Shown here: in pieces, positions 14,501-62,859 of the stretch | Position numbering within the stretch: position 1 is the stretch's first letter | Layout: each line of letters starts with the position of its first letter | NCBI GenBank assembly: GCA_036785375.1 | Contig: JAWMAR010000578.1 | Span: 868,001-932,000 of the forward strand | Direction: 5' to 3' | Origin: Leucoraja ocellata | Lineage: Eukaryota | Length of the DNA: 64,000 nucleotides | Translations under genes and position numbers: made by a program | The notes under the pieces: model-generated | The model's database searches: none | Seen by the model: only the letters and a program-made list of their open reading frames with translations | Told to the model about the DNA's origin: nothing

Positions 14501-14509
14501 TGATAATCA

Positions 14510-20117: not shown

Positions 20118-20378
<261 letters not shown>

Positions 20379-28510: not shown

Positions 28511-31299
28511 AGAAGTGATTTTGAAGCAAATCTTCTGATTAATCATTCTTTCCTCCAATTTCACGGTGAACTTTTCAGGGCTGTTTTGTAACCTGGGATG
28601 TTAACTGCATGTTTTGCAGTTAAGTGATATGCTTTGGACCATTGAGGTATATAAACAAGTGATTCTATGCAGCTGTTATAAGGAGTGTGTCGAGGCATTA
28701 AATACTTGAATATATTCGAACGTGAATTGTTACATCAGCAGCAAAGTGGTGATCTTGGGTATATGTGGATCTTCAAAAATTCTGTCATTATGTATTCTAA
28801 TTACAGATTGGTTAGGGATACTTCAAATCACAAATCGGTGCAAAACTGAAATGTGCAATGGTTGTAATTTGATCGAGCGAACATGAAAATCCATTCTTGA
28901 TGTGGGTCTTGCTTGCTTTTAAGTTTAATGACCTAGACCTTAGTGTGTCTTTCCAGTTAGTTGGTGTTTGGTTCAATTTTGGGGCAAAAAACTAATTTGG
29001 AAGTTCTCACGTGAAGAATCCTAGTTTATGCTGCACAATTCTAAACTTCAGTTTGGAGGATTTTAATTCCTTTCTTGGTGTATTTCAAATTATTTGATTT
29101 CCTTTTCAACAATTCCAGAAGTTGGTCATCAAAAAGAGTTGGCATTCTCAAAACTAATACCCTGACTTCAGTAACAGATGTCCTTGAATGTTTCAGATAG
29201 ATGAAATGTTCAAAATAACTTTTCTTCCATTGTTACAATATCATTAACACTTTAGAGGTCCTGAGCATTTTTCTATTATGTTGTCTGATTGTTTTTCATT
29301 CTGCCAAATGTATTACAGCCTCAGCTTTGTAAGATGCTGAACTAAATGAAGAAATACGTTTGCAGAATTATTAGATTTGCTTGTTTAAACTACATTCAAT
29401 GCTAACTGTTTTGCCGAAATTGAACAAAAGCATGTTGGGGTGAATTTATTGCAGAGGTGGGGTATTGTGCCTTGGTAAGGGAGAGATGAACAACTGCTGC
29501 TTGTATATCCATAATGGGTGACTCTGGGCTCCCAATGTATTGTGGGGTACTGTAGGTTAAGAGTCGGGCAGTGGATTTCCTTTTCTCCCCATCTATTGCC
29601 CTCGGCAGCCTATCACTATACCAATCCCATAATATATAATAGTACTTTAATCACCAGTTAATGGTGGTAGATTATCCTGACTTGTACTTCTAATGCTCTG
29701 CAATGTGAACATGTTATGCCAATGTGGGTTTCCTTCACTTTCCTTCCTCTTTACCGTAAATTGACCCTGGGTTAGCTGAGTAGGAGACGTTGATGGGCAT
29801 GAGAGAAAAAAGATGTAGAAAAATGTGGAATAGGACTGCCTAGATATGATATGTGTGTGGCCTGCATTTAAGCCAATGTTAAATGCACCAATCTGTTCTT
29901 ACTCCCAGAAATAATTCTTTAAAATGCTGTTCTCTAAATTCAGCCATTCAATGAGATTACAGATCTTCTCAACTCGATCTATAAGTATCCAAGTCTTTTC
30001 GTCCAAATATTTGAACAGGTGCAAAAGTCACTTCTTGCAAGGACTTGGAGTGCATCTTGTGGTTCCGCACTGCCCTAATCACTTTGGGGAACAATGCATT
30101 TCTCTCCTGGTTTGTTGGTTGGCAATTTTTTCTGTTTTGTATCAATACAGATGGCAGTCACAACAACTGATAATCTTCAAGCCGTGGATGAATTTGAAAA
30201 GACAGTTTTAATTAAGTGAAAATAAAATTATTTTTATAAAATTGAAGTAACGGGCATTTTCTTATAGAACGTAAGCTCACTTTGTGAAATTTTGATAACA
30301 TTGCACCAAATGTACAGTACAGCAGCATAAATGAGGGAGGATAGGTTTTTATGTTTGCACCTGTATGACACTGGCATTACTGTTCTTGCTTTCGTCTTGG
30401 AAAGCACTGGTTATTAACACGTCGGCTTCCGATTCTGTCAAGGTATTTCCTCTGTTGCAAATGATAGCGATCCCCTTCCCTGATCTGCGATGTGGTTCCT
30501 TTCAATTGGACAGGCAATAAATGGCAAGTGATAAGGTCTTGCATCTTCACTCATTCACAGTACCGTTACCCCTTTGAAATATTTATATCTGCGTAGACTG
30601 GGTGTTCGTTCTTGGGTTTAGGTGCTGATTTAATTGATTTGGAAAACTGCAGAGCAGCGTAAGTAGGCTTGTCAGCTTCGCTTCCTTTAGTCTGTGAAAG
30701 TCATTAAATATCGGATGTTAGTAAATACATGAATAGATTTTGTTTTCAAATATCGATCATTGATTAGTATAAGATAGCTACTTTAAGTATTTTTTCTTAC
30801 TCCAATTTTTAATTGTATTTATAAAGCAATATTTATTTTTGCACTTAATGTTCATACTAGGTTATTGCTAGTGTAATCTCCTAGGAAGTGTAGGTAAAGA
30901 TTTAAAGTACTACTTTTTCAGTATGCTAATACATTAGTTCAGCGTTCAACTAGCGTTCGGTGTCCCTTCCCAGAAAGCAAGTCGTGTTTATACATGGCCT
31001 GTTACAACCAGGCTTGCAGGGCCGGGTTCCTGGTTATGGACACGACTCGCCTCTGGCACAACCAGGCGATGCAAAAGTCAGTGACCCAGTAGCAGACTAG
31101 CCCATGTGGAAGGAGCCATTTTAAATATTCGATGGCTGTCTGTGTGCTGCTATCGGGTGGGATGGGGCGAACAGGGAGGCGAGTATCATACAGTGTGCTG
31201 TTATGCAAGATACAGTGAGACATCCAGTGAGTGCAGGTCATTGCTACAGAAAAGCAGCTGGGCGGGCGCCCTACAAATCCTCCCTCACCTCCTGCTAAT

Positions 31300-37457: not shown

Positions 37458-37501
37458 CGTTTCTGCACTTCGACTTGATTCCATCGAATTTTTATTAGCA
37501 T
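37458..37501 (-). CDS. Ig receptor gene A, probable cytoplasmic exon
   Basis: Strong acceptor ttgttttctttag|; in frame with the TM exon: (D)ANKNSMESSRSAET|gtaggg. The terminal exon was not resolved. Confidence 0.6.
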
Positions 37502-38120: not shown

Positions 38121-38219
38121 CATTTGTTGCCTTTATTCTGAGTACTATCAAAATTATAATCGGGATTAAAATTGCCAATACGCCCACTACACATCCGGGA
38201 ATCAGTGCGAGATTAGAGT
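38121..38219 (-). CDS. Ig receptor gene A, transmembrane exon (uncharged)
   Basis: ctcctgcag|(D)SNLALIPGCVVGVLAILIPIIILIVLRIKATN|gtaaga; 99 nt, phase 1/1. Confidence 0.85.
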
Positions 38220-40226: not shown

Positions 40227-40517
40227 CTGGCTTGACGGTGTAGTCGACTCTGGCGGGGACCGCAAGGGAGACATGTGACACTTTGCAGGTGTAAATATCA
40301 ACGCGCCAGGTAGGCTTTGTTACTTCGAGAAAACTGGAAGCCACATACAACCCCCCCACGCTACTGGTGTTCACAGGTTCCTCCCCGGTGGAAATTGTTA
40401 CACCATTTCTTTGCCAGGATATTTTGACTTCCTTCGGGGAAAAGGCAGCCGTTTGACACACAAGTTTTGGCGGCGAACTGCCATTAACTTGGCTAATGCT
40501 CAGGGGAGTTGGCGGAG
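40227..40517 (-). CDS. Ig receptor gene A, C1-set domain exon
   Basis: (A)PPTPLSISQ...LVCQTAAFSPKEVKISWQRNG...LYVASSFLEV...YTCKVSHVSL; C1 motifs C-x4-F-x-P-x6-W and Y-x-C-x-V-x-H; AG/GT, 291 nt, phase 1/1. Confidence 0.92.
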
Positions 40518-42675: not shown

Positions 42676-42981
42676 CAATTACAGTCAGCCTGGAGCCAGG
42701 TCCATCTCCGATAGATTGCTGCTGAACTTTCACTTTACAATAATAAACCCCGGAGTCCGCTATATTTGCATTCAGGAGAACAAAATCCCCAATGCCCTTT
42801 CTGGTAGAAATTATTTTTCTGCTGTCTGGTTCTATAAGTGTCTTCTCTCCCCATCTCCACCAGGAAACATCAGGAGTAACTTGTTGTATTGAGAACGTGC
42901 AGAACATGGACGCATTGCCTCCTCTGTGGACTGTCAGCTCTTTCGGGAATTGGTCCACTTTGGTCGTAGTTACTTCGTTGG
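42676..42981 (-). CDS. Ig receptor gene A, germline-joined VJ-type domain (NCR3/NKp30-like)
   Basis: (A)NEVTTTKVDQFPKELTVHRGGNASMFCTF...VSWW...DSGVYYCKVKVQQQSIGDGPGSRLTVI; J-like GxG-x-x-L-x-V in the same exon; ggcag| and |gtaagt, 306 nt. Confidence 0.92.
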
Positions 42982-43186
42982 CTGCCAGAAATTAAGGAAA
43001 ACACGGAAAACAGTTGCACAAACTGGACAAGGAAAATTAATCAAGAGTTGAAAATTACAAAAGTAAATTAGAATTAGCGACAAGCGAGCTGGAGAAGCAC
43101 TGTAACTAAATTCACAGTGGGCAACTAAATGGAGTATTCTAAAACAGAATTAAATATGATGGACCGGCACATATATCTAAAAGTAC

Positions 43187-43241
43187 CTTGCCAAACTGTC
43201 ACCAGAAGGGCCATGTACCGAAATGATGCTTCCACTGTCAT
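43187..43241 (-). CDS. Ig receptor gene A, leader exon
   Basis: ATG; MTVEASFRYMALLVTVWQ then a phase-1 donor GTACTT, 205 nt upstream of the V acceptor. Confidence 0.75.
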
Positions 43242-44149
43242 ATTATAAGATAGTTGTTGGCCGCTTGTTGCAAATGAGAGGTTTCCTAAAAGATCCTTGC
43301 AAGAAAGAGTTGCTGGTGAATAAATATTTTCCGCTTGTGACCATGACATAGGATGTCACATGACGGTAAAGTGGGTTTCACATTTGGTTCGGTGTTGGTG
43401 GAGTACTAGTGTGAGCGAGGGTCCGCCCCCACTGCCAAGTGAACAGTTTCTATCGGGGTACAATTCTCTCTCAGACTTCCCTGGATCCATGTTCAAATGA
43501 TTGACTGACCATTCAGAAGAGAATCGCAGATTTTCCTCATTCGACGCAAGGGACTTACAATCTAATATGAACTTTAAAAAAAAAATTACAGGGGGAAGGA
43601 AGGAGAATGCGGTTGAGAGCGAAGGGTTAATCAGTCATGATAGGATGGCGGAGAAGACTCGATGGGCTGAATGGTCTAATTCTGCTTTGATTTATGAGCT
43701 TATGAATTTATTTCGTCACCCCACTTCGGGTTTGATGTCTTTCTAATCTCTCTTATGTTCCATGTCCCAGGGCTTGAAGCCCATTGGAAAAACAACAGGA
43801 GTAACTAACCCAGATATGTCTTTCTTTATTTCTTTTGCTTCAACCCAGCCTGATTTTAATTGGAATATAAAGCAAGGAAGGATGAACTGAAATGGACGAT
43901 TAGAAGGACCAAAAGTTGCCACGAGGTGCTTGAAGAAGGGTCCCGAAACGTCACCCATTCCTTGTCTCCAGAGATGCTGCCTGTCCCACTGAATGACTCC
44001 AGTATAAAAGGTGCCACAAAATGGTTTTGGGGAGTCGGTTTACATACAATCCCTTTAAAAAAAATACCTACATTAAAACAAGAGGGTAACGAAGAGAGGG
44101 GAGGGGTCACTCAATGTAAAATAGCAAATTTGTGCATGGAGTCGGGTTG

Positions 44150-46310
44150 AGGCAAAGTACTAAACAGGTACATTGCATCTGTATTGACTGAGGAGAAGGG
44201 CATGGAAGACGGTGAGTTCAGTGTTGAGAATATTAATTTTCAAGGACAGATTTTTGATTAAGATACAGGGGTTTTTAACAAACATTAACGTGGATAAATC
44301 CACAGGGCCTAACGCGATATATTTCTTGAGAGAGGCAAGAGCGGAAATTGCAAGAACCTTGACAAAGATTTTAGCATTTTTTCTGGCTACATGCAATGAT
44401 CTGGAAGACTGCAGAGTAGCTAATGTTGTTCCATTGTTTAAAAAGGGAAATAGAGGGAATTTAACTAATATGGGCCTGGTGCACCACACGTCAATAGTAG
44501 GGAGGCTATTGGATATGATTCATTTGGATAGGATTTATTCCCATTTGGAAGAGAATGGTTTCATTTAGACAGTCAGCATGGCTTTGTACATGACAGGTCA
44601 TTTTTTACTAATGCTCCAGATTTTTTGAAGAAGGAGCAAAGGTGATCCATGACAGTAGAATAATGGATGGCATCTACATAGATTTTAGCGATGCATTTGA
44701 TGTAGGCTGATCCAAAAGATCAGGATCTTGTGTATTAACAGAGGATTAACAATGATTTGATTGTATGGATTCATAAATGGCTTACTAATAGAAGGCAGTG
44801 GGTAGTGGTGGAAGAACAATATTCAGGCTGGAGGTCTGGATGATCTATTGTACATTTTTGTTGTACTCCGTCCCCTTTGATATCTTGTTTTCACACCTTA
44901 CCCATCCATATCTTTGTGTCTCCCTCTCCACTGACTCTCAGTCTGCAGAAGGGTCTCAACCTGAAATGTCACCCATTCCTTCTATCTAGGGTTGCTGCCT
45001 GACCTGCTGATTTACTCCAACATTTTGTGTTTTTCTTTGGTGTAAATCAGCATCTGCAGTTCCTTCCTACACTTAATAATTTCTTTAGCTGAAGGGCAAC
45101 ACACCAGAGGACTGGAGAACAGCCAATATTGTTCCTTTGTTTAAGAAGGAAACTAGAGATGATCAAGGAAATTATAGGACTGGGCCTCACATCAGTGATA
45201 GAACAGCTATTGGAGTGGATTATTTGGGAGAGGCTTTATTTGTGTTTGGAAGAAAATGGGCTAATTAAAGACAGTCAGCGTGGCTTTGTACATGGAAGGC
45301 CATGTATTATGACCCTGATTGGTGTTTTTGAGCAGGAGATGAAGGTGATTGATCTGGGTGGGGCAGTGGATGCTGTCTACGTTTATTTTTGGCTAGACAT
45401 TTGATAAAATCCCTCATGGTAGGTAATCCAAAAGATGAAAGTGTTTGGAATCCAAAGTGATGTGGTTGTTGGAATTCAGAACTGACTTACTCAGAGCAGA
45501 CTGAGTGCTGTGATGGAAGTGAGTTATTTTGGCTGGATGTCTGTGACTAATAAAGTTTCTCAAGGATCTGCACTGGGACCTCTGTCATCAGCAATATATA
45601 AAAATGATTTGCAAATAAATGGGTTGGTTAGTAGTTATCAAATAATACCAAAATTGGGAAACTTGTGGAAAAGAGGTTGGCAGTCAAGTTATATAAGAGG
45701 GATTATAATCAGTTGCAGAAATGGATGGAGAAATGGCAGAATGAGTCTGCAAGTGTGGTGCACTTTGGGAGGTCAAATGTAAGGGGAAAGTATACACTCA
45801 ATAGAAAGTACCTCAGCAGCATCGCTATACAGCGAGCTCTCGGGCACCTTGTTCACAGCTCCCTGATAGATAGATATGCCATTTATTGTCACTATACATG
45901 TATAGTGAAATTGAAAGCTGCTCGTACTCAGTGCATGCATATAATTTAGTACAAAAAACAAGAAACAGAAAAACAAAACAGAAGGGATAAGGGGGGGGGG
46001 GGGGGGGGGAATAGGTGCTCAATTCTGCGGCGCTATATACATATATACATATATACAGATGGAAGTCCGGGTGTTGGGCTGTGAAGTCAGTGCATGTGTG
46101 AATTTGAATTAAGAGTAGTTATAATTTTCGGAAAGATAAAGATAAAGTAATAAAGAAAGCATCTGATATGCTTGCTTGCATCAATCAGAGCATTGAATAG
46201 AAAAGTCAGGAAATCGCGTTTAATTCAACTTGGCACCATGTTCGGCATGGACATCAGGCATGGGTTCAGGGCCTGTTCCTGTGCTGTACTTTTCTATGTT
46301 CTAATATGTT
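44150..46310 (+). mobile_element. Two successive CR1 ORF2 remnants interrupted by a Penelope-type repeat
   Basis: EDCRVANVVPLFKKGNR; LIKDSQRGFVHGRPCIMTLI; VSQGSALGPL. Confidence 0.8.
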
Positions 46311-46614
46311 GCTATTAATTCAAATGTATTCCGTTTTTTGCAATAAATTTGCAAAATCAAGATTTGCCGAAAAGTCTTCTCTACCAGATTAGTTGACCCA
46401 AATTAGGAAGAAATAATCCTTCAATGGTGCCACTCACACTGCCACCCAACATGGCCTGCTCAATGATTTGGTAACTGCAGGACGGAGATAGATTGTCAGT
46501 CACTTCCGGATTTCAGGTACCTCCGGTTGCTTTGCAAATCAATGAATATAACGAGCTGCCAAGAGAATTGGCAGAAACGGGTATCATTATGACAATTAAA
46601 TAAAACCCGGTAGT

Positions 46615-46960
46615 TCATAAGGTCATAAGTGATGGGAGTAGAATTATGCCACTCAATCTTGGCTGATCTATCTCTCCCTCCAATCCCCATTCTCCTGTGT
46701 TTTCCCTATAACTGTCACCTGTACTAATCAAAAATCTATCCATCTCTGCTTTAAAAATATCCACTGGTTTGGCCCCTACAACCTTTTGTAGCAAAGAAAT
46801 CCACAGATTCACCAGCCTCTGACTAAAAAATAATACCCTCATCTCCTTCCTAAAAGAATGTCCTTTCATTCTGAGTCTGTGACCTCTAGTCCCAGACTCT
46901 TCCACTAGTGGATACGTCCTCTCCACATCCACGCTATCCAACTTTCTCTATTCTGTACGT
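46615..46960 (-). mobile_element. CR1 LINE 3' end
   Basis: MDSVDVERTYPLVEESGTRGHRLRMKG...FFSQRLVNLWISL. Confidence 0.85.
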
Positions 46961-47278
46961 TCCATTAACTGAGCTCATCAATCTGCCATTTTTTGCAAAC
47001 GTTTTTCCATTTACTTTGTGATTCTTAATATCATCAAAACCAGAATGAAATATTTGGTTGTATTTACTTAATATGAGGAGATGGATTACGAAACATGGAT
47101 GATTTGCCAGTCCCACTTGCCAGCACCTGTTTCATGTCCCAAAAAAATATTTCCTCTCACTGTACCTGGCTGTCCTTTAACTGACTAAATTATGTCTGCC
47201 TCAGCAACCTCCTCCCACAGCTCTTACAAGTATGCACCACGCTTTGTGTGGCCCTCAGGTTCCATTAACTCTTTTCCA

Positions 47279-48662
47279 TCTCTATAATACTAAAACTCTT
47301 CCTATTGTTTGTGTTTGTGCCCACGATGTTTCAATCTGCTTTTCCTATCTTCTTCCAAACGCGAGGCCACAGCCTTACAATTTTCACATATCCTACTCAC
47401 ATTTTCCCCGTCGAGGCGATAAACATCTTCTCGTCACATTCCCGCCTATATTTCCAAAGTTATTAATCCTTTAAATTTTAAAAACAGCCCCCAAAACTCG
47501 CCCATTTCGGAAAAAAGAACCAGAGTGACGTCACAATGCACTTGCAAGGCAGGACGGGACACTCCAGGGGGGAGGGGCACTCCAATGCTCGCGGTGAACG
47601 AGGGGTGGTGGTGGCTGCTGGCGCCCGATGCCCAAACCTGGTGGGGAGTGTGGTGCTGGAGCTGGAGTGAGAGCTGAGCCCGGGGCTGGGGATGGGGCGC
47701 TGACCGGGGCCGAGAAAGAAGCTGCCGCTGGAACCAAGGACAAGCCTGGGTCCGGCGTCATGGATGAGCCCTGAGATGAAGTCAGGACCTGCACTGGAGC
47801 CCAGGCGGCAGCCGAGCTGACGGATGGAGTCTGGAGATGAAGTCGAGGCCTTCACTGGAACCCAGGCAGCGGCCGAGCTGACGGCTGGAGTCTAGTGTCA
47901 GGACCGAGCACAAGTACGAGAACCAGGCCGAGTTCCAGGCCCTGGCGCTGCTCTACGACCTGGGTAGGTGCTGGGGCAGGGAATGGGAATGAGGCGAGGA
48001 GGATGAGGGAAATGAGGAGGAAGGAGATGTGGTGGGGAGTGGAGTGGTAGAGGGAGACGGGGGTGTGTGCAGGAGGCTAGATGGGGAGGGGTGGAGGAGG
48101 GAGAAGCCCCTCCCTATCTACCCTCACTCTCACACTCTCTACCCCCTCCCTCTCTACCCCCTCCCTCTCCTTCCCTCACCCTCTCTTCCCCCTCTCTCTT
48201 CCTCTATCCCCCCCGTCTCTCTCTCTACCCCCTCCATCTCTGCCCCTCTCACTCTCCAGCCCCCTCCCCCACAACCCCCCTCCACTACCCTCCCTCTCCA
48301 CTCCCCCTCCCTTTCGTTCTCTACCCCGTCCCCCTCCTCTCCCTCTCTACCCCTTTCCCTCTACCCCGTCCCTCTTTGCCCCCCCCACCCCCTCCCTCTA
48401 TACCCCTCTCCCTCTTTACCCCCTCCCTCTCTACCGCCCCACCCTCACTACCCCCTCCCTCTCTAGAGATTGAAGAGGGAGGGTGAAGAGGAGTAGATGG
48501 GAGTGCTGGGGGATGAGTAGAAATGAGCCGCACCTGCGCAGTTGGGGACTATGCGTGAGTGGCGCAATATTGCATTGGGGGAACGGCTTGTGTTGGGGGA
48601 ACGGGTGAGTGGTGGAATCTTGCGTTGGGGGAGTAGACCCAATGGGTCTGCACTTGGTCTGG
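47279..48662 (+). mobile_element. Non-autonomous Helitron-like element inserted in a CR1 fragment
   Basis: A|TCTCTATAATACTAAAA start; AGACCC-AAT-GGGTCT hairpin 8 nt before CTGG|T; no TSD; the flanks rejoin into contiguous CR1 3' sequence. Confidence 0.8.
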
Positions 48663-49519
48663 TCTTCAATTAAAACGGTGCTCTCTAGTTTTTCTGACTC
48701 CCCTACCCTGATGAAAAGTCTGTGCTGTTCACCTTATCTATGTTCGTTGTGATTTCATATATAGAACCTCTAAAAGGCCAGATAGGTCTCCGACTCTCTC
48801 GGGAAAATGATCAAGCCAATTCTCATTGCTCAAAGCCTCCAGATTCAATGAATACATTATAGCTCTAACTAACCTAATATTTTATGGAGAATTGCACATT
48901 AATGAATTGTGCCAATTTAGAAAAGTAATACCAGTTTCATACATGTCATTGTTAAGGGGAAATCAGGCTGATTTCTCAAAAAGTAGCCTCACACTGTCAT
49001 GGCCATCATCATTAATCGCTACGAATTACCCACCCCCCCCCCCCTTCTATTTTGCATCCCCTCCCTATTTTATATTTGCTTCAGATTTCAGCATCCCCGA
49101 ACAAGTTCTTCCCGCCTCCTTCACCGCTTCTTCTCCTCCCTCCCTTCCCAGTTAGTTTTTCTCTCTCGATCTCCAGCGGTTCTCTCAAGAAAAATGGCCG
49201 AGTGCCAAGAGATGCTTGTGGTCCCTATTCCTACTATCGTCTCAATCACCAATGCAGATCAGCATCCGTATACAATGTACTATTTCCGACGTTGGGATCT
49301 CACTCCATCAACGGGTTCTTGGGAAGATCTGTCAGCTGTTGTGTTGAGATTCACCCAAAAAAGTGAGATTCACCAAAAAATAGTCAATCGGAAAGCCGAA
49401 AATAAAGAAAGAAAGCACGGAGCAACCATTTCAATGCTTGCTCCCCACTTGAAATCACATACAAAAGCAGAGGATTCATTTCTGGTTTCCGAACTAATGA
49501 CTCTCCCATACGTAGGGAT

Positions 49520-49785
49520 ATGGAAGTTACGGAAGTGACCAAAAAACCTTTGTTGAAGATGCGATCTTAACTGATGTCAACTGAACATTTCCTCCGTCCA
49601 TTCATCTAAATTACTCTAAAGCACCGCGAAAAGGATTTCACCTTTCAATAAATGTTCTTTGTTCCTATTTTCTCCCTTGAAGCCTAACGACCTTACTCTT
49701 GTTGAGAGACTCTGCGGTACACTCTTGCCAAGTGTTTCTGGATTCACAACAACAAAATTCACAGGTCCAGAATCTTCAGTCGATA
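49520..49785 (+). pseudogene. Possible decayed Ig V-domain exon
   Basis: One frame reads VN*TFP (TGA at 49582, where a B-strand Cys is expected)...*SLTTLLLLRDSAVHSCQV; a shifted frame continues KFTGPESSV; no Trp, two stops. Confidence 0.35.
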
Positions 49786-51340
49786 GAATCATACAACGTG
49801 GAAACAGGCCTTTCGGCCCAACTTGCCCACACCGACCAACATGCCCCAAGTACACTTCTTCTAAATGTCTGCGTTTGGCCCATATCTCTGCCCTATCCAT
49901 GTACCTGTCTAAATGTTTCTTATTTCCGAAGATGGGATCTCACTGCATCAACGAATATGCAGTTCTCGGGAAGATCTGTCAGCTATTGGGATAGTACCTG
50001 CCTCAAATACTTCCTCCAGCAGCTCGTTCCATGCATGCACCCCCCTCTGTGTGAAAAAGCTACCCCTTAGGTTTCTATTAAATCTTTCCCCCTCACCTTA
50101 AAACTATGTCATTTGGTTCTTGATTCCCCTACTCTGGGCAACTGGCTCTGTTCGTCTATCCAATCTATTCATCTCATGATTTTGTACACCTCAATATGAT
50201 CACCTCTCATCCTATTGCGCAACGAGGAATAGAGTCCAAGGCTGCTCAACCTCTCACTATAGCTCAGGCACTCGTGTCCAGGCAACATCCTCGTAAATCT
50301 TCTCTGCACCCTTTCCAGCTTGACAACATCTTTCCTAAAACACAGTGTCCAGAACTGAACACAATACTCTAAATACGGCCTTACCGCTTCATATCACATA
50401 TCACTGCAACATAACCTCACAACGTCTATACTCACTACGCTGTCTGATTAAGGCATATGTGCCAAAAGCATTTTTGACCACTCTACCTACCTGTGGTGCC
50501 ACTTTCAAAGAACTCTGTACCTCCACTCCCCAGAGCACTACCTTGCACTATGTAGGTCTTGCCCATGTTAGTCTTCCCAAAATGTACCACCCCGCATTTA
50601 TATTAAATTCCATCAACCATTTTTCAGCCCACTTGACCAACTGATCAAGATCCTGCTGTAATTTTTTGATAACCATCTTCACTGTCTATACAATGTTGAC
50701 TATCGCTAATCATCCCACGTCCATCTAGATGCATTTTTATCCTATCCCTCAGAATAATCTCCAGCAATTTACCAACCACGGATGATAAACTCACTGGCCT
50801 GTAGTTCCCAGCCTTTTCCCTGCCACCCTTCTTGAATAAAGCACAACATTTGCCACCCTCTAGTCTTTGGACACCTTGACGATTCATAAATCTCCGCCAG
50901 GGTCCTGCAATTTCCTCTCTAGCTTCCCAGAGTCCTCGGATATATGTGATCAGGCCTGGGAGATTTTTCTACCTTCATACGCTTCACGATATCCAGCACC
51001 TCTTCAGCCATAATATTGACTGCTCTCAAGATACTTCCAGTGACTGTCCCAAGTTCCTCAGTTCTCCTGTCTTTCTCCATGGCTAAAAAAATAGAAATAC
51101 TCATTGAGGACCTTGCCCATCTCATGTGGCTCTACCAGAGTTAACCCTTTGATTCCTTATGGATCCCATACGCTCTGGTTCCCCCTTTTTCCCTCGATGT
51201 ACTTATAAAATCTATTGGGATTATCCTTAATGCTATCTGCCAGGGATAATTCCTGTCCCCTTTTTGCCCTTGCAATTTAATTTGTTTAGCTTACTCCTTA
51301 GTCCCGAAACTCTTCCAGGGACACAGTTGATTCCGTCAAA
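49786..51340 (-). mobile_element. CR1 LINE remnant with internal deletion
   Basis: LFKKGGREKAGNYRPVSLSSVVGKLLEIILRDRI; KSPRPDHIYPRTL. Confidence 0.88.
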
Positions 51341-52046
51341 CCTGACTCTTGATTCTGTCAAAAATATGAACGTTTTGTCTTATTCAGGGGAAGATGTAGA
51401 TTTGGCTTTTTTTCCATTTTGTTTTATTACCCTATCTGGATGCGAAGCTTTGTAAACTTGTTAATTCAACCCTCTACTGTTTACAGTAATGACAACATGT
51501 TCGATGACAATAAAGTGCTCTGGGACCAAAAGTAGATTTAAAACACATGTTCCCTCGTGTTTCACTAGTTGTTTTCTTTGTTAAGCAGCTCATCTCTTCT
51601 TGCAAGCATATTAACCGACAAATTATTTCAGATTTGTTTTCAGCTGAAATTACATCAGTGTTTCGAAATGCCCCTCTCTTGTCATAACCGATAATACAGG
51701 GGAATGTCAGGATATTTATCCAATTATCAATTTTATAATGATTGCCAATGAAACAATAAGTGGTTTGTCCTTCTACGTTGCAATAGAAAGATTGGCAACT
51801 TTAAAACTTGTTTTGAATTGATATCAAGATAATTGTTTCGTATTTCTTTTTTCCAGAATGTACACGGCGCGCAATTACCAGACATAAAACTCGCAGAGCA
51901 AATATTTTGGTATCAGAAACAGGGTCTCAAATAAATTACTCAAATTAGACTTCTTCCACTTCAGCGTCAAATTGGATACCGCAAGCAGTTTGCAACTTCA
52001 GATCATCGTACACTTTGACCACAGCGAGTTTCCATGATGTCACCAG

Positions 52047-52155
52047 CAGATTCAAGGTGCATTATTCTTATGGGTTACTTACTCTTAGTTCGAGCTATGA
52101 ATGTATTTATGGGGGTTCATTGGCTATATCATCTTTTTATAGAGAAGTTGCAAAT
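52047..52155 (+). pseudogene. Possible NKp30-like Arg-containing TM exon relic
   Basis: ccag|(A)DSRCIILMGYLLLVRAMNVFMG...|gtgcgt; followed by a strong acceptor tttccttccag at ~52291. Confidence 0.35.
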
Positions 52156-52559
52156 GTGCGTGCTCTGGCTACAGCGAATTACAGACAGAAAGCTGAAGTT
52201 TGAAGAAAGGTCTCGACACGAAACGTCGCCTACACATCTGATCCACAGAGTTACTCCAGCACTGTTAATCTTTTTTTAAATTTCCTTCCAGAGGACGTAC
52301 CCTTTCCAATCGCAATGGAACAAGAAGCAAAAAAAGACATTTACAAAGGACGAGAATAAATTGAAAAGAAGGCTGATAAGCACGCACGCATGTACAGATT
52401 TAGATACACATACACACATTTATTTAAACGCATACGTTTTACTGCGATGTTTTCTCAGAAAACGCCAACTTTCATTGATACAACATCTTCAAACCATTTA
52501 AAGAAAATACACAGAACGTGCTTTACGGGAAGATAAAGGTCTTGCAAAGTGAGTTTAGG

Positions 52560-54150
52560 GAGTTCCACAAATGTTTTAAAAAAATTACTTCATGAGTCCC
52601 TATCTCAGGATTCCTGCGTGGGATCTGTATAGAAAACATTGATTGATCTAAACTGGAAGGGAACGAAGATCAGAGAAGAGAGGATTATTCAAGCTACTTA
52701 GAAGTGTTTAAACGAACTTGGGAAGGGAGAAGGTCGGTGGAAGCATGGAACCAGTGCAACAACTGGGGTGAAATTTGTGCAGGACAAATCAAGCAAGTCC
52801 CAAGGGCAGAGTAGAGGGTGGCAGGTTCGCAAGCCGAGGAGGCTTAGCAGGCTCAACAGCATTTACTTTAATGCAAGGTGTCTCACTGACAAGTCAGTTG
52901 ACATTAGAGCATGTGTCAGAACTTGGAATGATGACTTTACTGCAATCACATAGTTGAGGGAAGAGGGAAGGACAAGACTGGCAACTTAATGTTCCAAGTT
53001 ATACAACCTTCAGGTGTGAGAAAGAGTACTGCAGAAGAGCAGGGGGGTACGTTTGCATTGCCTGTTAGGCAGAAAATAATTAACCCTTTGGAAGGGTATC
53101 CTGGAGGGTTCATCCAATGAGGCCTTATGGATCGAATTTGGGAAAAAGAGAGGAACGATCACTTTGCCAAAGTTATAAGATAGACTTCCCAGTAGTCAGG
53201 AAAAATGACTGGAACAGGTATGTAAGCAAGCCGCCAAAGTTTGTTATAGTGGGCATTTTTATATGCTCAATCTTAACTGGATTGTCCTGATTGTCACGGG
53301 TTTAGATGGAGAGAAATTTGTTAAGTTTGTACCACACATTTTGAGAGCCAATATATTATTGGTCCTGTCAGATATGAGTCAGTACGATGCTCGACATTAT
53401 CAGGAAAGCACTGGGTAGGTGGTGGAAATGTTGGTGGAGCGAGACTTTTAGAACAGTGAAAATTCAGAAATGTTCAAGTTATTTATGCAAAGGGATCAGG
53501 CTGTTCCTTAAATTTGAGAAAGGCTTGTTTCAATAGCATAACTAGAAATTGATGAATGTAGACTGGGCACAGATGCTTGTGGGTAAAACTGACAAGTGGA
53601 AGTCTTTTAAGGGACAATTAACCAGACTTCAGATTCAGCAAGTTCCAATTAAGGTGAAAGGAAAGATGGCAAGGCAGGAGATACATGTGGCCCAGGCAGA
53701 GGTTTCAGTACCTTCATTCTTCAAAGGTGACATGCCAAAACAGGGAAGGATAACTACTATTCTTTCACTTAAGAAGAGCACCAAAGATATGCCAAGTAAT
53801 TACAACTGTTGTGCCTTACTTCATTAATGAGGGAAATTAATGAGGAAGGTCTTAAGAGATATGATTTATGTAAATTTGATAATTCAGGTATTTATTAGGG
53901 ATAGTCAGTAGATCTTTGTGCGGGGGTAAATCCTGCCTCACTAATTTGATTGAGCTTTATGAGGCAACTACTAAACAGATTCATCAAGGCGGGATTGTAG
54001 GCATTTTTTTGACGTTTGACATGGTTTCACATCGCAGGCTGGTTCAGAAGATTAAGACATACTGGATACACCTTACATCGTTGGCTAATTGCATCTAAAA
54101 TTGGCATGGTGAAAGTAGACAGTGGTAGTGGTGGAAAGCTACATTTCTGA
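52560..54150 (+). mobile_element. CR1 ORF2 5' part (APE endonuclease to RT), degenerate
   Basis: SIYFNARCLTDK...IRACVRTWNDDFTAIT (APE N-terminus); GKSCLTNLIELYE (RT). Confidence 0.8.
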
Positions 54151-56231
54151 CTGCCTTGGAAATTAATTCCACACAACCATGGAAATAAAACTGTCTCTCA
54201 TTTCTCCTTTCAATTTATCCTGTGTCAGCTTAAACAATGCTCTTTAATTCCAGACTCTCCTGGTGAAGGAAAATGACTGACTATTGTCCTATTTATGCTT
54301 CTGATCAAATTATAAATCATGATGTGGTGTGATCAGAACTGTACATTGTACACCAAAGGCGCACATAAACAGCACATGCTTACTCACATGTTTCAGTGCT
54401 TTATGCTCCCACTGTCTTCCAGGCAAAACCTATCTGCATTTTATGTTTTTCCTTCCATGTTCTTGTTCATGACACTCGGTGGAGCATATTTATTATTTAC
54501 GTGGATACATTTAGCTCTAAAAAATACTCAAGAAGCACAACATTATTCAGGATAAAGAAACCCTTCTCATTGGTACCGATTCACCAACATAAAATAAATA
54601 GTCTCCATTACTGTTGCATCATAGCTGCAGTGGACCACGTTGATGGAAATATATTGCAATTCCTTCAGCTACTTCCTATCCAGGAGTGGTGATCTTTCAC
54701 TTGAAGGGGAAATCATGGAAGATGACCTACCAATTTTACACCGTAATTAAATAATTCCTCAGTTACAGTTGCTTAGTTAGGTTGCAGTTGCTCAAGACAT
54801 TAGTGAGGCCACATTTGGAATATTGTCTTCAGTTTTCGTCATCCTATTGTAGGGAATGTTATTGGTGCAGAGACGATTTACGAGGATGTTGCCAGAAGTA
54901 GACTGGGGAGATTGAGCAGGTTAGAACTTTATTCCTTGGAGCGCAGGAGAATGAGGAGTGATCTTATACAGATATATGATCATGAAGGGAATAGATAGGG
55001 TAAACGTCTACTCTGTCAAACCTTAAAACTTCTATTAGGCCACTCAATTACATTGTTTATCCATACAGACCAGCCCGAATCAATGTTTTATTTCTGGATA
55101 AGAATTGCCTCATTTTGTACACTGTACTGCAGTTCAATCCACTTACCTTATTCTTTTCTGCTTTTCAATTCTGAGTAAAAATGAACGGTGCCATGTTCTT
55201 TTTATATGGCCCCGTTAATCTCTCTTCATAGATTTGTGTATTAATGCTCCCAAACATCTTACTCATCCAATAACTGGGTATTATTTGGTGTTTATCTTTC
55301 CAGGAGTGTGGGCAACATCAACGAATCCAGCATTTATTGTCCGTACCACGTTGCCCTGAGAAGATGGACATTATCCACAGGCTTGAATTACTGCATTCCT
55401 TCATGTGAATGAACTCCCCCAATGCAATTGGGAAGGAAGCACTCAGATTTAGAAGTAAACCTGATGATGAAAAACAGCATATTTTTAAGTTAGGATGGTT
55501 GCCAGACCCTGATGCCATGGTGCAGATTAGGTTGGTAGATGGGAAACTGATCAAGGATGGTGTTGAACTTCTTCAATGTTTTTGGAGTTTGATTTATCCA
55601 GGCAAGTAGGTTAAGCTTTGGCATGCTCTTAGATTGTGGATAGGCTGTCAGGAGGAGAGTCATTTCAAATTGCCTGAGCAATTTATGTATTCTTTTAAAA
55701 AGTACCGCCTCATACCTATCTAAATCAAAAACTAATTAGTTATTAAATGGTCATTCTTGTAAGTGTATTTAATTCCTGAATTTTACTTCATTTACCTTTA
55801 GATTTAAACAAATCTGACATTGAGAACTACAAACATTTTGTTGCATTTGATTATGGCTTGTTTATGTTTTCAATTTCCATCCAATTTCATTTAATTTGCA
55901 GTTGAAAAGGTCAACATCAAGGGATTCTATTACAAAAGTGATGCCAATGCATAACATGGTTAAGTTACAACTTATCTGTTACATCATTGTCATAAATTCA
56001 GACAAACTGATAGAGCATATTTAATAAAGACTCAATATCTTTAAAACCGATTAATTGCTCAAAACTATATTCTAAGAATTAATTTCTTGCCGATATCATT
56101 TTGTGGAAGAAATTTAAAATTTAGAATGAGTTAAATCTGGCATAAAATTAGATCTAATAAACACCAGTGAATAATAGATTACACCCTTTGAACTTGAAAA
56201 AAATTTCAGGCATAACTCTTTTCACTCAAGA

Positions 56232-57348
56232 TCATAGAGTATAGAAGTTGGGATGTAATGTTAAAATTGTACAAGGCATTGGTGAGGCCAATTCTGGAGT
56301 ATGGTGTACAATTTTGGTCGCCTAGTTTTAGGAAGGATGTCAACAAAATAGAGAGAGTACAGAGGAGATTTACTAGAATGTTGCCTAGGTTTCAGCAACT
56401 AAGTTACAGAGAAAGGTTGAACAAGTTAGGGCTTTATTCTTTGGAGCGCAGAAGGTTAAGGGGGGACGATAGAGGTCTTTAAAATGATGAGAGGGATAGA
56501 CAGAGTTGACGTGGATAAGCTTTTCCCACTGAGAGTAGGGAAGATTCAAACAAGGGGGCATGACTTGAGAATTAAGGGACAGAAGTTTAGGGGTAACATG
56601 AGGGGGAACTTCTTTATTCAGAGAGTGGTGGCTGTGTGGAATGAGCTTCCAGTGAAGGTGGTGGAGGCAGGTTCGTTTTTATCATTTAAAAATAAATTGG
56701 ATAGTTATATGGATGGGAAAGGAATGGAGGGTTATAGTCTGAGCACAAGTATATGGGACTAGGGGAGAATACGTGTTCAGCCGGACTAGAAGGGTCGAGA
56801 TGGCCTGTTTCTGTGCTGTAATTGTTATATGGTTATATATAGACAGTTTATTTTTTCTACTCTCGTAGTTTATTTCATGCCACATTTGAAGTTTATGCCA
56901 GTTTTGCATTTATATATCTTTCTGGAAGAAAGGGACTGAAAAAAATATACAAATTCAAATAGATGCAAACTAATAGCTTACAAAATTCTTAAGAGGTTGG
57001 ACAGGCTAGATGCAGGAAGATTGTTCCCGATGTTGGGGAAGTCCAGAACAAGAGGTCACAGTTTAAGGATAAGGGGGAAATCTTTTAGGACCGAGATGAG
57101 AAAAACATTTTTTCACACAGAGTGGTGAATCTCTGGAATTCTCTGCCACAGAAGGTATTTGAGGCCAGTTCATTGGCTATATTTAAGAGGGAGTTAGATG
57201 TGGCCCTTGTGGCTAAAGGGATCAGGGGGTATGGAGAGAAGGCAGGTACAGGATACTGAGTTGGATGATCAGTCATGATCATATTGAATGGCAGTGCAGG
57301 CTCGAAGGGTCGAATGGCCTACTCCTGCACCTATTTTCTATGTTTCTA
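56232..57348 (+). mobile_element. Two young CR1 3' fragments (56232-56840 and 56976-57348)
   Basis: MLKLYKALVRPILEYGVQFWSP...LGLYSLERRRLRGD; near-identical copies at 23666 and 12935. Confidence 0.92.
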
Positions 57349-58865
57349 ATAGTTACCAGTATCTTTATATCAGATCTAATTTCGCATATTGATAAAAAAA
57401 TTAATTGACAACGATTTGTCCGGAATTAACTTGTCCAATATATGTTTTGAGCAGTGGATTAAGTTTATAACCTTTGCTTCCTTTGTGAAATATTCTGCAC
57501 TGATTAATTTGGATTCAACATTTGTGGTTATCAGGCAGGCGGGTTGCAGACATCGGAGTCATGGTGACTTAACTCATCAGCCTCAGGCATGCTGAGGTTA
57601 TGGAATGATGGGAGAGCGCAATATTCAGGTGCTGGAGGCACCGCCCAGATGGAAGAAGGACATGATGCTAAATTGCAGAACGGATTGACAAAGTCTGTAG
57701 TACTTCGATGAAGCCACAAGGTGGAGCCCGCCCCTCGCGCAATGTAAAGAGGCTCTCTATGGCAGATGGAAGCGATTTTCTTTCTGATGAAGGATACAGA
57801 GGAGCTGGACATCAATTCGGACTTGGGATCTGGCCTTTCAACAACAACACCAGGATGCATAATTTTATTCAGATCTTTGTAAAATCAAGACTCGCCTCCC
57901 TGAACAAAGCTGGAATTACTCGGCCAAATGCAGCTTTTAAGACTGAGACGGTGGTCCGGTTTTGAGTAAATAGTGCAATTTTCAGTATAATACGCTTAGA
58001 TTCAGTCAGCCGTTTCTAGCACGATCTGTTAAAGAAACAAAACATTTAAAGTTTATATCAACTGAATTATTGTGATAAGTCCCCTAGCGTTCTTACCCGT
58101 TTCTATCACATACCCGGAGGTCTTTCCATGTTCCTCTCTGTTCATTGTTTGCTCTGATGTCTCGACCAATCGGTCAACCTTTACCACGGAGCCTAGACAG
58201 GAAGACAAATTAATTGGGTACTATAGTGCAGATTTGGCGATCGTGAGTTATTTTGAATGTTGACATATTTTCTTACACCACTCTTATTATGAGCCGACAA
58301 GACATCTAACGGGCGCCGATTCCCTATTGCCCAATTTGTGCTCCCGACTAAAATCGATTTGTCGCCTTTGTCTCCAGATGGGTTCGAGGTCAAGGCGAGA
58401 GAGTCACCACTAAATGATACTTTGAATAATTATCTGAACATCAGTTTTGAAGACATTCCCGACGCTTCATCTTACAGGGATCAGCCGCGGCTGGGCTCCA
58501 CCCTTCAGAAGCAAAAACAATGGGATGGGGACCAATTCGGGCAGATGCAGAAATCACAACATTCAGCGGAGTCCCGACTGACCACAAAAATGAAAGAAGG
58601 AACGGTAATCGTGCCGACAACTTTTAAATCAAAGGATTGGGAAATAATCAATTTATCCAACATGCATTGGCCCAAGATAAACAGTTGCACAAAGCTGTAA
58701 CTTGAGGAAGGAAACCGCTCCAAGTGGCGACATCTAAATTACAACCGCTCTCATCTTCCAATTCTGCATGTGGCGTTTCAGCAGTGGAACAATTATTTTA
58801 TAACAGTTCGATTAGAAGACGGTATTGTATTCCTTGATATTAACGATGATTAACAATTTATTTTT

Positions 58866-58966
58866 TTAAGCTCTTTCAATGCCCTCTTTTGTTTTTGGAT
58901 TTTTACAAGTGAATTTGGAACACTGGTGATAGCGGAGACTTGACGGAATTGTTGTCCTCTGTGAGT
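58866..58966 (-). CDS. Ig receptor gene B, candidate terminal cytoplasmic exon
   Basis: ttctccatccccag|(D)SQRTTIPSSLRYHQCSKFTCKNPKTKEGIERA-TAA, with AATAAA immediately after. Alternative: the TM exon reads through to AKGE-TGA. Confidence 0.4.
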
Positions 58967-59128
58967 CTGGGGATGGAGAACTGATATAATTCTGTACCGT
59001 TTGGGGATCACGATCTTGTTATTAACAATGTGGCCAAATAGCATCAATTCACGTAGCGTCATTTGATTCTCCGCAGCACCATTTTACAGGGAATTTGAAG
59101 ATTAACTCTAGAATGAAGCTTCATTCAC

Positions 59129-59227
59129 CTTTGGCAGAGCTTGATCCAAAAACAATTCTCAAAGTAGCCAACACCAGTAGAATGATCAATGTACCTCCTA
59201 AATTGCGAAGGACAACGCTGGCCGAAC
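59129..59227 (-). CDS. Ig receptor gene B, transmembrane exon with Arg residues
   Basis: tttttacgtctgcag|(G)SASVVLRNLGGTLIILLVLATLRIVFGSSSAK|gtgaat; 99 nt, phase 1/1, same length and relative position as the gene A TM exon. Confidence 0.75.
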
Positions 59228-59639
59228 CTGCAGACGTAAAAAGTAATTGAGCAATAAGACAATTATCACAAGTGAATGAACAAACTATAGAATTGTATTT
59301 GTGTAAAGAGCTTTATCAAGTGTCACTGTACTACAAAAAATATCCAAATAAAATAGCAATATTAGGCAAATGGACACTGTACAAAATAAACGGGAGATCT
59401 TGCTTCCAATATGAACAATATTGTTATTGCATTATATGTCAACGAGTGATACATTTCCAAGTCAAGCTAGTGTGCAATTTGGAAGGCAGCCTGCAGGCCG
59501 TGGTGTTCACATGCACCTGTTGCCCTTGTCATTGTTGGTGATCCAACCTGTCCAGAAATCTATAAATGTCAATCCTCACTTTTCAAACATCTGCAACGCT
59601 TCGAGGTAGGGAATTACAAAGATTCACTCATCTCTGAGA

Positions 59640-61790
59640 AGAGTCATACAGTCACAGAATGATACAGTGTGGAAACAGGCCCTTCGGCCCAACTCGCCTA
59701 CACCGGCCAACAATGTCCCTGCTAACCTAGTCCCACTTGCCTGTGCTTGGTCCATAACCCTCCAAACATTTCATATCCATGTACCTGTCCAACTGTTTCT
59801 TAAACGATGGGATAGTCCCAACCTCCTCTGGCAGCTTGTTACATACACCCTCCACCCTCTGTGTGAAAATGTTACCCCTCGGATTCCTATTAAATCTTTT
59901 CCCCTTCACCTTGAACCTATGTCCTCTGGTCCTCGATTCCCCTACTCTGGGTAGAATCTGCGCATCTACCCGATCTATTCCCCTCATAATTGTGTACACT
60001 TCTATAAGATCTCCCCTCATCCTCCAACGCTCCATGGAATAGAGACCCAGCCTACTTAACGTCTCCCTATAGCTCACACACTCTCTAGACCTGGCAACAT
60101 CATCGTAAATCTTTTCTGAACCATTTCAAGATTGACAATATCTTTCCTATAACATGGTGCCCAGAACTGAACACTATATTCTAAATGTGGTCTCAGCAAC
60201 GTCTTATACCACTGCAACATGACCTACCAACGTCTATACTCAATACTCTGAATGATGAAGGCCAAAGTGCCAAAAGCCGTTTTGACCACCTGCGATTCGA
60301 CCTTCAAGGAACCATGCACTTGTACTCCTAGACCCCTCTGCTCTACACCACTAGCATTTACTGTTTAGGTCATGCCCTTGTTCGACTTCCCAAAATGCAA
60401 CACCTTAAACTTCTCTGTATTAAATTCCATCAACCATTCCTCTGCCCACGTGGCCAAGCGACCCAGTTCCTGCTGCAATCGTTCATAACCATCTTCACTA
60501 TCTGCAAAACCACTAACTTTTGTATCATCAGCAATCTTGCTAATCTTGCCCTGTTTGTTTTCATCCAAATCATTGATGTAGATGCCAAACAGTAACGGGC
60601 CCAGCACCGAACCCTGTGGCACACCACTAGTCACTGGCCTCCATTCTGAGAAGCAATCTTCCACTAACATTCTATTTTCTTCCATGGAGCTAATTTACTA
60701 TCCATTCAGCTATCTCTCCTTAGATCCCACGAGATCTAACCTTCCAAAACAGCCAACCATGCGGCACCTTGTCGAATGCCTTATTAAAATCCATGCACAC
60801 AACATCTACCCCTCTGCCATCATCAACCTTTTTGCCCACGTTTTCAAAAACAATCAATCAGATTGTGAGACACGACGTCCCACGTACAAAACCATGCTGA
60901 CTGTCCCTAATCAGCCCATGCCCATCCAAATGCATGTATAACCTATCCCTCAGAATACTCTACAGTAACTTATCAACTACAAATGTTAAGCTCTCCAGCC
61001 TATAGTTCCCAGCATTTTCCCTGCAGTCCTTCTTGAAAAGAGGCACAACATTTGCCACCCACCAATCCTCTGGCACCTCTCCTGTATTTAAGGACGACAT
61101 ACATTTAATCCAGGGCCTCCGCAATTTCCTCCCTTGTTTCCCGCAATGTCCTCTGATATATCCGACCAGGCCCCAGAGATTTGACTACCTTCAAACACGA
61201 CAGTACCTTTAGTACTTCCTCGACAGTACTTCCTCGATGCTCTCATGACACTTCCAGTAACTGCTCCAATTTCCTCCATCCTACTGTTTTCTCCTTGGTA
61301 AATGCAGAGGAGAAATACTCTTTGAGGACCTTACCCATCTCCTGTAGCTCCACACAGAGGTGACCGCTTTTATTCCTGAGAGGTCCCACTTTCTCTCTGG
61401 TTATCCTTTGCCCCCTTATGTTTTTACAAAATCTTTTCGGATTGTCTTTTATGGTACCCGCCAGAGCTATCTCCTGGCCAATTTTTGCCCTTCTGATCTC
61501 CTTTTTTAGTTTGCTCCTTATTTCCCAAAACTCCTCCAGTGATGCACTTATCCCAACTGCCTTTACCTGTCCCATGCACCCTTCTTGTTTTTGACTAACG
61601 TCTCAATTTCCCTCGTCAGCCAAGCTTCTTTACGTTTGCCTGCTTTGCCTTTCACTCTAACGGAGACGTACACACCCTGAGCTCTCTACAGCATACGTTT
61701 AAAACATCCCACTTGGCCGATGTTCCCTCCCCATCAAATAACCTGCCCCAGTCAAGTTGAGCTAGACCTTCTCTCATACCCTCAAAATAG
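59640..61790 (-). mobile_element. ~2.1-kb CR1 LINE in the gene B C1-TM intron
   Basis: SEWRPVTSGVPQGSVLGPLLFGIYINDLDE...IADDTKV; IKDNPKRFCKNIRG; intact 3' end at ~59640. Confidence 0.92.
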
Positions 61791-62114
61791 TGAAATATCT
61801 CAACATTGCAAAGTTATTTCCCGACTATATATAAAGAACGTGTACCTCTATCCCCATCTCACTGATTGTGTCTTTTTGATTATTTTTTGTTTGCTAACAC
61901 CTCTGACAGCCTTGAAGGTTTAGCCACGTCACAGACACTATAAATATTGAAGATGCAGATATAATTTAGAAAACAGATGAGAGCATATGATACGTCAGTT
62001 TGCCCGAACTCCCGCGGCGAATAAACACGGTCCACATTCAGCCCGTCTAGTCGTGTTTGAGCTGTATCCATCAATATTTCTAAATCTGTTCCCAGCTCTA
62101 TTTGCCAGTCTTAC

Positions 62115-62405
62115 CTGGCTTGACGGTGTAGTCGACTTTGGCCGGGACCGCAAGGGAGACATGTGACACTAGGCAGGTGTAAATATCAACGCGCCAGGTA
62201 GGCTTTGTTACTTGGAGAAAGCTGGAAGCCACATACAACTCCTCCACGCTACTGATGTTCACACGTTCTTCCCCGGTGGAAATTGTTACACCGTTTCTTT
62301 GCCAGGATATTTTGACTTCCTTCGGGGAAAAGGCAGCCGTTTTACACACAAGTCTGGGCGGCGAACTGCCATTAACTTGGCTAATGCTCAGGGGAGTTGG
62401 CGGAG
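62115..62405 (-). CDS. Ig receptor gene B, C1-set domain exon (V and leader expected beyond the window)
   Basis: 291 nt with the same splice sites as 40227-40517; 15 nt differences counted by eye. Confidence 0.92.
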
Positions 62406-62859
62406 CTGTAACAGAAGAAAAAATATGTTGCACATTTTCTTTCCAATTCAACGATAACATTCTAGTTTGCCTCGTCACACCGCGACCTTGCACTCCCACC
62501 ATGAGATCGGTTATCGGTACAATCGCTTTTGCAATCACTGATTTGTCATTGTTTTAGATTTGACAGTGAAATATATCCAAGCAATACATAAGGAATCCGA
62601 GGTTTGGATGTAGGTAATATGAGGGCTTCTGAACAATCGCCAATGTTCTAAAGTGCCAAATCAGTAGCGTGGCGGGTGTGTATCATCGATGGCAACAACT
62701 TTTTATGTTCATTCAAAAATGACTGTTTTTACGAGATTTTGGTGTAAAGAATGATACGTGTAGAGTGGAATATCACAGAGATACACAGCACAGCACAGCA
62801 CAGAGCAGCCCAGATTACCTATTGCGTAATTAAACCTCCATCTCCACGTATTCATTTTT

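Follow-up and report, generated by a model that had tools for sequence, protein, structure and literature searches.

The short immunoglobulin exon at positions 42,676 to 42,981 of the 64,000-nucleotide stretch analyzed here (the window) probably belongs to an intact VJ-C1-transmembrane gene that does not rearrange, of which it encodes the front domain; this gene is part of a large cartilaginous-fish cluster and likely encodes an inhibitory paired immune receptor. Six exons join into a single open frame of 306 amino acids, with AG/GT or ATG/stop boundaries at every exon:

43187..43241, reverse strand: leader exon, beginning with ATG, 18 codons plus one base (split leader), GT donor in phase 1; located by tblastn to the N-termini of shark homologs P0002 and P0004
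42676..42981, reverse strand: joined VJ domain, Cys-Cys distance 54, predicted to be without C''/CDR2; from sequence, Pfam, an AlphaFold model and a fold search
40227..40517, reverse strand: C1-set constant domain exon, AG/GT-bounded; Pfam C1-set E 2.2e-14 (54 bits against a cut-off of 21), best PDB matches Ig constant domains
38121..38219, reverse strand: transmembrane exon with an uncharged hydrophobic stretch, AG/GT-bounded; from a hydropathy scan and tblastn to P0004 (E 1.3e-7)
37458..37501, reverse strand: inferred short cytoplasmic exon of 44 bp, phase 1 to 0, restoring the frame to the last exon
30566..30691, reverse strand: last coding exon with two tyrosine motifs and the stop; from tblastn to shark tails (E 2e-5) and the gene model

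The predicted protein is colinear with horn shark protein P0004, to which it is 49.5% identical over 321 columns. The least certain exon is the 44-bp one, which is the candidate with the best polypyrimidine tract and is conserved in a sister copy but has an alignment score of only 27. The tail motifs, PTYAAL and PVYADI, lie 22 residues apart, and both have Pro at position −2, where relatives have LTYxxL and TxYxxV; because this is not the usual hydrophobic residue or Thr, phosphatase binding by the predicted tail may be weak.

The VJ sequence occupies a single AG/GT-bounded exon of 306 bp (42981..42676, phase 1/1), flanked by an acceptor CAG ending at 42982 and a donor GTAAGT from 42675. Its B-strand and F-strand Cys codons lie at 42901 and 42739, confirming the distance of 54 residues reported in the sequence-only reading, and the C-strand Trp is at the first Cys +13, 41 residues ahead of the F-strand Cys. 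Together with a D-x-G-x-Y-x-C motif and a J-like G strand (G-x-G-x-G, then L-x-V) in the same exon, these are the features of a joined VJ domain. The earlier description of a J-like exon end lacking a recombination signal sequence (RSS) also holds: a scan of the whole window allowing at most one heptamer and two nonamer mismatches found no RSS near the exon, the only match being intronic, at 37051. With a looser nonamer, two of the 40 family V exons have an RSS match, in each case on the opposite strand, and 14 of 29 background V exons have an RSS directly behind the F-strand Cys.

For these comparisons the background was taken from the genome's 30 top-ranked PF07686 loci, 29 of them measurable, comprising TCR-like segments, joined light chains and others. 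In this set, which was chosen by a V-set profile and is thus biased to full-length V domains, the Cys-Cys distance is 68–73 and the Trp-Cys distance 54–60, and against these values the exon is indeed unusually short, as had been proposed. Since its Trp-Cys distance is 41, the missing length lies mostly between strands C and F. A canonical V-set domain has a Cys-Cys distance of about 65–75 with C'/C'' strands and CDR2; here the distance is 54 and no C'' strand appears in either of two models.

It is extremely improbable, and already largely refuted, that the domain is short only because the assembly is wrong, an intron went unnoticed or the gene is a decaying pseudogene. The spacing is not an assembly slip, because the same exon is present on a second, haplotype-like contig with 97% amino-acid identity, and because contigs from two other public runs span it with substitutions and no listed indel inside. 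The spacing of 54 is kept in all 20 of the nearest copies as well as in most measurable related proteins (counts below), all exons are open, and the ratio of nonsynonymous to synonymous differences (pN/pS) is below 1. What could be cited for an artefact is the presence of broken family copies nearby and of 0 reads on the V exon in one RNA run of a related organism, of which ∼6% was read, tissue unspecified; no RNA data set is listed for the exon. Separately, the substitutions in two related organisms bunch at window positions 42715–42727, corresponding to FG-loop codons, a hint of faster change in the CDR3-equivalent loop.

An AlphaFold model of the V domain, built on an alignment of 31 sequences, reached a pLDDT of 92.4 and contains strands at residues 7–9, 12–15, 21–26, 35–40, 53–58, 61–66, 75–83, 86–90 and 94–98. 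These correspond to A, A', B, C, D, E, F and G, with one bridge residue near 46 at the place of C' and no C''; in the model of a paralog with a spacing of 59 there is likewise no strand between C and D. The domain is therefore predicted to be compact and without C''/CDR2, in agreement with the earlier proposal, and intact C' and C'' strands are not seen. The same proposal had called the domain VNAR- or I-set-like, and both kinds head the structural match lists. In a search against 48,161 chains the best matches are skate VNAR 8ht3 (Z 14.8, rmsd 1.8, 96 residues aligned), NCAM2 (Z 14.7) and CD147 (Z 14.3). Among re-scored Foldseek matches VNAR (Z 14.8–14.9), NCAM I-set domains (Z 14.5–14.7) and TCR V-alpha and light-chain V domains (Z 14.2–14.5) are tied within Z 14.2–14.9, so the fold search singles out no one kin. 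Relative to the V domain the aligned span of VNAR is ∼7 residues longer, that of NKp30 ∼14 longer and that of NCAM2 ∼4 shorter. The suggested NKp30-like FG loop is not supported as a pointer to kinship: NKp30 (6yjp) scores Z 12.7, rank 45 of the 50 matches listed and ∼2 below the top rows (CD79b scores 13.5), and the gene differs from it in its C1 domain, its membrane segment without charge and its tyrosine-bearing tail. With a profile of the family's E–G strands, NKp30 is not among the best 60 matches, and it is also missing from the listed sequence matches of the domain, although such absences exclude nothing. PDB entries 5xpw (amphioxus IgVJ-C2) and 5l8k (VNAR) match the E–G profile nearly end to end and are the listed matches of that kind without a long multi-domain architecture.

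The model combines I-set and V-type features. According to the consulted parts of PMC8470474, the I-set is defined by an A/A' split, a very short C', a straight C'-D link and no C'', all of which are present in the model; excerpts of PMC8470474 and PMC4622739 place VNAR between the I- and V-sets and describe it as having lost two strands. Excerpts of PMC11926128 name PD-L2 and the sponge “early variable” (EV) domains as further CDR2-less V domains, and give as I-set hallmarks a short FG loop and an Asn four residues past the F-strand Cys. The F-G hairpin of the family is long and V-like: 35 of 40 exons have both the Gly at Cys+14 and the Val at Cys+19. Asn at Cys+4 occurs in 0 of 40, although this marker is weak, being seen in 45 of 156 long I-set matches. 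It is consequently very unlikely that this is an ordinary I-set adhesion domain resembling VJ by chance, in an adhesion molecule or a B7H6-like ligand, even though Pfam scores the domain slightly higher as I-set (36.4 bits) than as V-set (33.7 bits; both above cut-off), sequence matches include NCAM, ROBO and titin, and some relatives are named NCR3LG1-like or tapasin-like. The ITIM-type tails and Arg-membrane partners found in the family also point to signalling receptors rather than adhesion molecules.

The assembly contains 48 matches to the V exon, distributed over contig 578, on which the window lies (C578, 11 matches), and contigs C1270 (14), C26 (22) and C105 (1). In the 40 copies that were measured the Cys-Cys distance is 54 (20 copies), 56 (3), 57 (1) or 59 (16). 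C1270, 99.5% identical to the window across a 27-kb stretch that takes in NUDT21, probably represents the second haplotype, from which we infer roughly 30 family genes per haplotype, although some C26 copies may be duplicates. Pooled paralog comparisons give no excess of amino-acid change, with pN/pS below 1 for both domains: 0.48 in four type-A and 0.84 in five type-B copies for V exons, and 0.38 and 0.67, respectively, for C1. The type-C value (two copies) was discarded, since a 3-residue FG deletion in one copy shifts the comparison. With no excess of amino-acid change, these data do not show a pathogen-driven repertoire. The type-C copy with the FG loop three residues shorter lies at G000:C578:1093572-1093856, and its counterpart at C1270:120644-120928 has an internal stop. 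In type-B genes at about 947–948 kb, 962 kb and 1018 kb of G000:C578, two different TM-like exons occur in tandem, ∼0.7–1.1 kb apart, and could be alternative membrane forms or remnants of deleted genes.

A homolog search at near length returned no match, and RefSeq models from cartilaginous fishes represent the same family, combining a short joined VJ (54–60) with one C1, a membrane segment and either an ITIM-type tail or an Arg in the membrane segment. Among 65 related proteins examined, isoforms counted, 60 were measurable, with distances of 54 (37 proteins), 56 (4), 58 (1), 59 (17) and 60 (1). Their sources are Callorhinchus (a chimaera), several sharks, sawfish, rays and Amblyraja, and within one species they mostly come from a single long contig; one skate paralog is nearly identical to Amblyraja protein P0127. 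The names in RefSeq are automatic, most often “SIRP-alpha-like” but also “NCR3LG1-like”, “tapasin-related-like” and “Ig lambda-like”; examples are P0004, P0028 (XP_062923465.1), P0026 (XP_038662025.1) and P0162 (XP_007902825.2). P0127 and P0190 have a duplicated C1. In a quick tree the 54-type sequences of elasmobranchs group in one clade (13 rows, SH-aLRT 97). In an alignment they are set apart by three additional small gaps, which take two residues from the BC loop, two from the C-D link and one near the D-E turn, and the 54 spacing recurs in chimaera genes outside this clade. The short domain is old, 59 being the widespread length and 54 marking an elasmobranch subfamily.

The reading as a paired-receptor family follows from the relatives that have a membrane Arg and a short tail. 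Many relatives carry canonical LTYxxL / TxYxxV tails, and P0001, P0026, P0091 and P0106, two of the four within the 54 clade, have a short tail and carry an Arg at the outer membrane end. In the skate genome two Arg-bearing TM exons with AG/GT boundaries, at G000:C26:7870441 and 7948205 on the reverse strand, are candidate activating forms, and no ITIM-type exon was matched between the one at 7,870,441 and the next gene; the C578 part of the cluster yielded no membrane exon of the Arg type. Clustered paralogs bearing either tyrosine tails or a basic membrane residue with a short tail are what defines, at the level of sequence, the paired class of ITIM and charged-membrane receptors. By analogy with the known signalling of SIRP, NITR, LILR, PD-1 and NKp30, the single V domain would contact a cell-surface or microbial ligand through the BC loop, the FG loop and the exposed GFC sheet. 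Src-family kinases would then phosphorylate the tail tyrosines, and the phosphorylated tail would recruit SHP-1/2 and dampen a leukocyte, while the membrane-Arg paralogs would pass on an activating signal via an ITAM adaptor.

The V domain probably functions on its own, because the residue before G-x-G is never aromatic in the 40 exons (it is Ile or Val in 30); pairing VH, VL and TCR domains have an aromatic residue at this position. This bears on the quite improbable alternative that the protein is a surrogate non-rearranging antigen-receptor chain, a PRARP/VJC1/UrIg-like relic in a C1-paired, TCR-like dimer. The split leader and the joined VJ and C1 in light-chain order would suit such a chain, UrIg2 and Ig chains are the top matches of the V-C1 profile, and Atlas ranks “putative antigen receptor” first among its clusters (score 0.94). 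However, long tyrosine tails and multigene clusters suit paired receptors, and the family V profile gives skate TCR and light-chain V domains ≤32 bits. The five joined light-chain-like V exons found in the skate genome have Cys-Cys distances of 68–71, and germline-joined light chains in general combine a full-length VL with no TM exon, whereas the skate gene has both a TM and a tail. UrIg/UrIg2, PRARP and Xenopus VJC1 resemble it as non-rearranging VJ-C1 genes with a split leader, but in the accessible text of PMC12227049 UrIg has 3 and UrIg2 has 9 or more C1 domains and they lie in the MHC or Ig/TCR complex, in contrast to one C1 beside NUDT21 and a G2BR-domain gene in skate. IgNAR differs in having V, D and J segments with RSS and five constant domains, as opposed to no RSS and one C1 followed by a TM and tyrosine tail. 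VNAR itself is among the tied best structural matches and shares the absence of C''/CDR2, the short C-D link and the V-type FG hairpin, but it is V(D)J-rearranged where the skate gene is germline-joined, and identity is only 21–28%.

Two further features of the window define its neighborhood:

20175..20378, forward strand: NUDT21 (CPSF5) exon, a flanking marker and not a receptor; PDB CPSF5 match E 9e-40
62113..62415, reverse strand: C1 exon of the next upstream family gene, whose V exon (C578:932946-933251) lies just beyond the window

NUDT21 is present twice in the assembly, once on C578 and once on C1270. Window positions 10033–10575 (reverse strand) resemble the N-terminus of AMFR and are likely its first exon, head-to-head with NUDT21. 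An Atlas search with this putative exon gave nothing informative, but 28 kb left of the window, on the same strand (G000:C578:839685), lies a gene with a G2BR domain that is likely AMFR. OGFOD1 is found among the C26 family copies. AMFR, NUDT21 and OGFOD1 are together on reedfish chr9, relative to which the block is rearranged in skate, because OGFOD1 is on another contig; the block is of the human 16q type. Of the next upstream family gene the leader, V and C1 exons were found, and no TM or tail exon was detected across 43400–62100 before the following gene; its C1 read-through stops within a few residues, and its product may be a soluble or a truncated protein, or the gene may be spliced to exons further downstream. 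The window also contains broken LTR-retrotransposon-like pol pieces at 12266–14555 (reverse strand; RNase H/integrase-like frames by eye) and LINE reverse-transcriptase remnants at 44188–44565, 46618–46947 and 59730–61602.

The locus is also relevant to the alternative, which we consider unlikely, that the cluster would correspond to SIRP in cartilaginous fish, as its ortholog or ohnolog, after shortening of the V and loss of one C1, and would recognize a CD47-like self marker. SIRP-alpha/beta genes do share the joined VJ followed by C1, the paired ITIM and charged-membrane forms and the tandem cluster; SIRP-alpha-like is the commonest name among the RefSeq relatives; and SIRP-alpha 2wng is the best non-immunoglobulin immune receptor match of the V-C1 profile (positions 24–212, E 3.4e-29). 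A clade of the family with SIRP is not rejected (p-AU 0.14, obtained with one SIRP row on a long branch). On the other hand, SIRP has a full-length V with a Cys-Cys distance of 66, which scores 21.7 bits on the family V profile, the level of titin-like domains, and it has two C1 domains instead of one. The activating forms of the family have the Arg near the outer membrane end, unlike SIRP-beta, which has a central Lys in its membrane segment. The flanking genes also differ, AMFR-NUDT21-OGFOD1 not being the SIRP neighborhood, which in human is 20p13. The consulted section of PMC13262535 places the SIRP family in tetrapods.

The comparison extends to other germline families. The NITRs described in the available part of bioRxiv 10.1101/2021.06.11.448072 likewise come in large germline V-J receptor clusters, with ITIM or a charged TM; but the second domain of NITR is an I domain, unlike the C1-set domain here, and holostean NITR clusters lie by runx1/donson, not by NUDT21. 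That part of the preprint also cites a report that cartilaginous fish are without NITR homologs. NKp30 shares a single-exon VJ with a G-x-G strand and, with the activating relatives of the skate gene, the Arg-TM, but it consists of one full-length V and an Arg-bearing TM with no C1. Sawfish NCR3 genes are on the MHC chromosome, according to the portion of the PMC10751288 supplement at hand. The sponge SAML/RTK EV domain and PD-L2 are similar in having a V-like domain without C''/CDR2, a long FG loop and then a C1-like domain (PMC11926128, consulted in excerpt); these cases show that CDR2-less V domains recur, and direct kinship is not indicated.

Outside cartilaginous fishes, similar domains were found in reptiles and teleosts. 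On the family V profile chondrichthyan members score 94–120 bits and TCR, light-chain, SIRP and titin-like domains ≤32, while four reptile-named multi-domain receptors and one unnamed look-alike score 51–66 and three teleost proteins 62–63; the reptile and teleost rows came from the same query, and this score gap is therefore partly selected. The reptile proteins P0015, P0046, P0068, P0088 and P0092 carry 2–6 tandem short VJ-like domains (52–63) and have either an ITIM-type tail or an Arg in the TM; their annotations are titin-, obscurin- or FCRL-like, and they are possibly another unnamed paired family. P0122, P0147 and P0150 are unnamed teleost proteins with a single short VJ-like domain (Cys-Cys 53–55). 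In a 27-row tree the family is monophyletic (78/89) and the deep forks are open; a single clade of the family with the reptile and teleost rows is neither shown nor rejected (p-AU 0.19). In the accessible rows of the PMC10751288 supplement, reedfish chr12 at 7.3–12.5 Mb holds a dense gene run with SIRP-like, tapasin-related-like and NCR3LG1-like automatic names, by these names only a possible bony-fish counterpart. No Ig-like gene is named beside ogfod1/nudt21 in reedfish among the rows listed.

In the literature covered by the search there is no description of the family or its short V domain, and the elephant shark genome supplement contains no match for SIRP, NKp30, ITIM or tapasin. VJ-C1 genes in tetrapods and UrIg in sharks are mentioned in the part of PMC10751288 consulted, and known joined-VJ genes are listed in that of PMC11599192. 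The gene models are already in RefSeq under borrowed names, and the fold alone is not a new category, since CDR2-less V domains are known from VNAR, PD-L2 and sponge EV domains. A broader interpretation, which at present seems rather doubtful, is that the family belongs to an unnamed germline VJ lineage as old as the jawed vertebrates and built on a CDR2-less domain, with each cartilaginous-fish genome holding ∼30 paired receptors of the VJ-C1 form and with the reptile multi-domain ITIM/Arg proteins and the teleost single short-VJ proteins as survivors. If true, this lineage would supply what sharks have so far lacked, a counterpart of the NK or myeloid receptors of the NITR/SIRP type. The VNAR fold would then have either its template or a separate precedent there, and an I-set-framed VJ-C1 chain would have existed apart from the rearranging loci.

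No large paired inhibitory/activating Ig receptor family in cartilaginous fish is described in the literature covered, and the cluster supplies named candidates. It likewise provides candidates in the search for joined VJ-C1 genes related to the gene that the RAG transposon split. The V domain of the family is as compact as VNAR or smaller and is conserved from chimaeras to skates. The cluster thereby makes two questions testable: which on/off receptors shark NK or myeloid cells use, and whether the loss of CDR2 in VNAR is ancestral or convergent.
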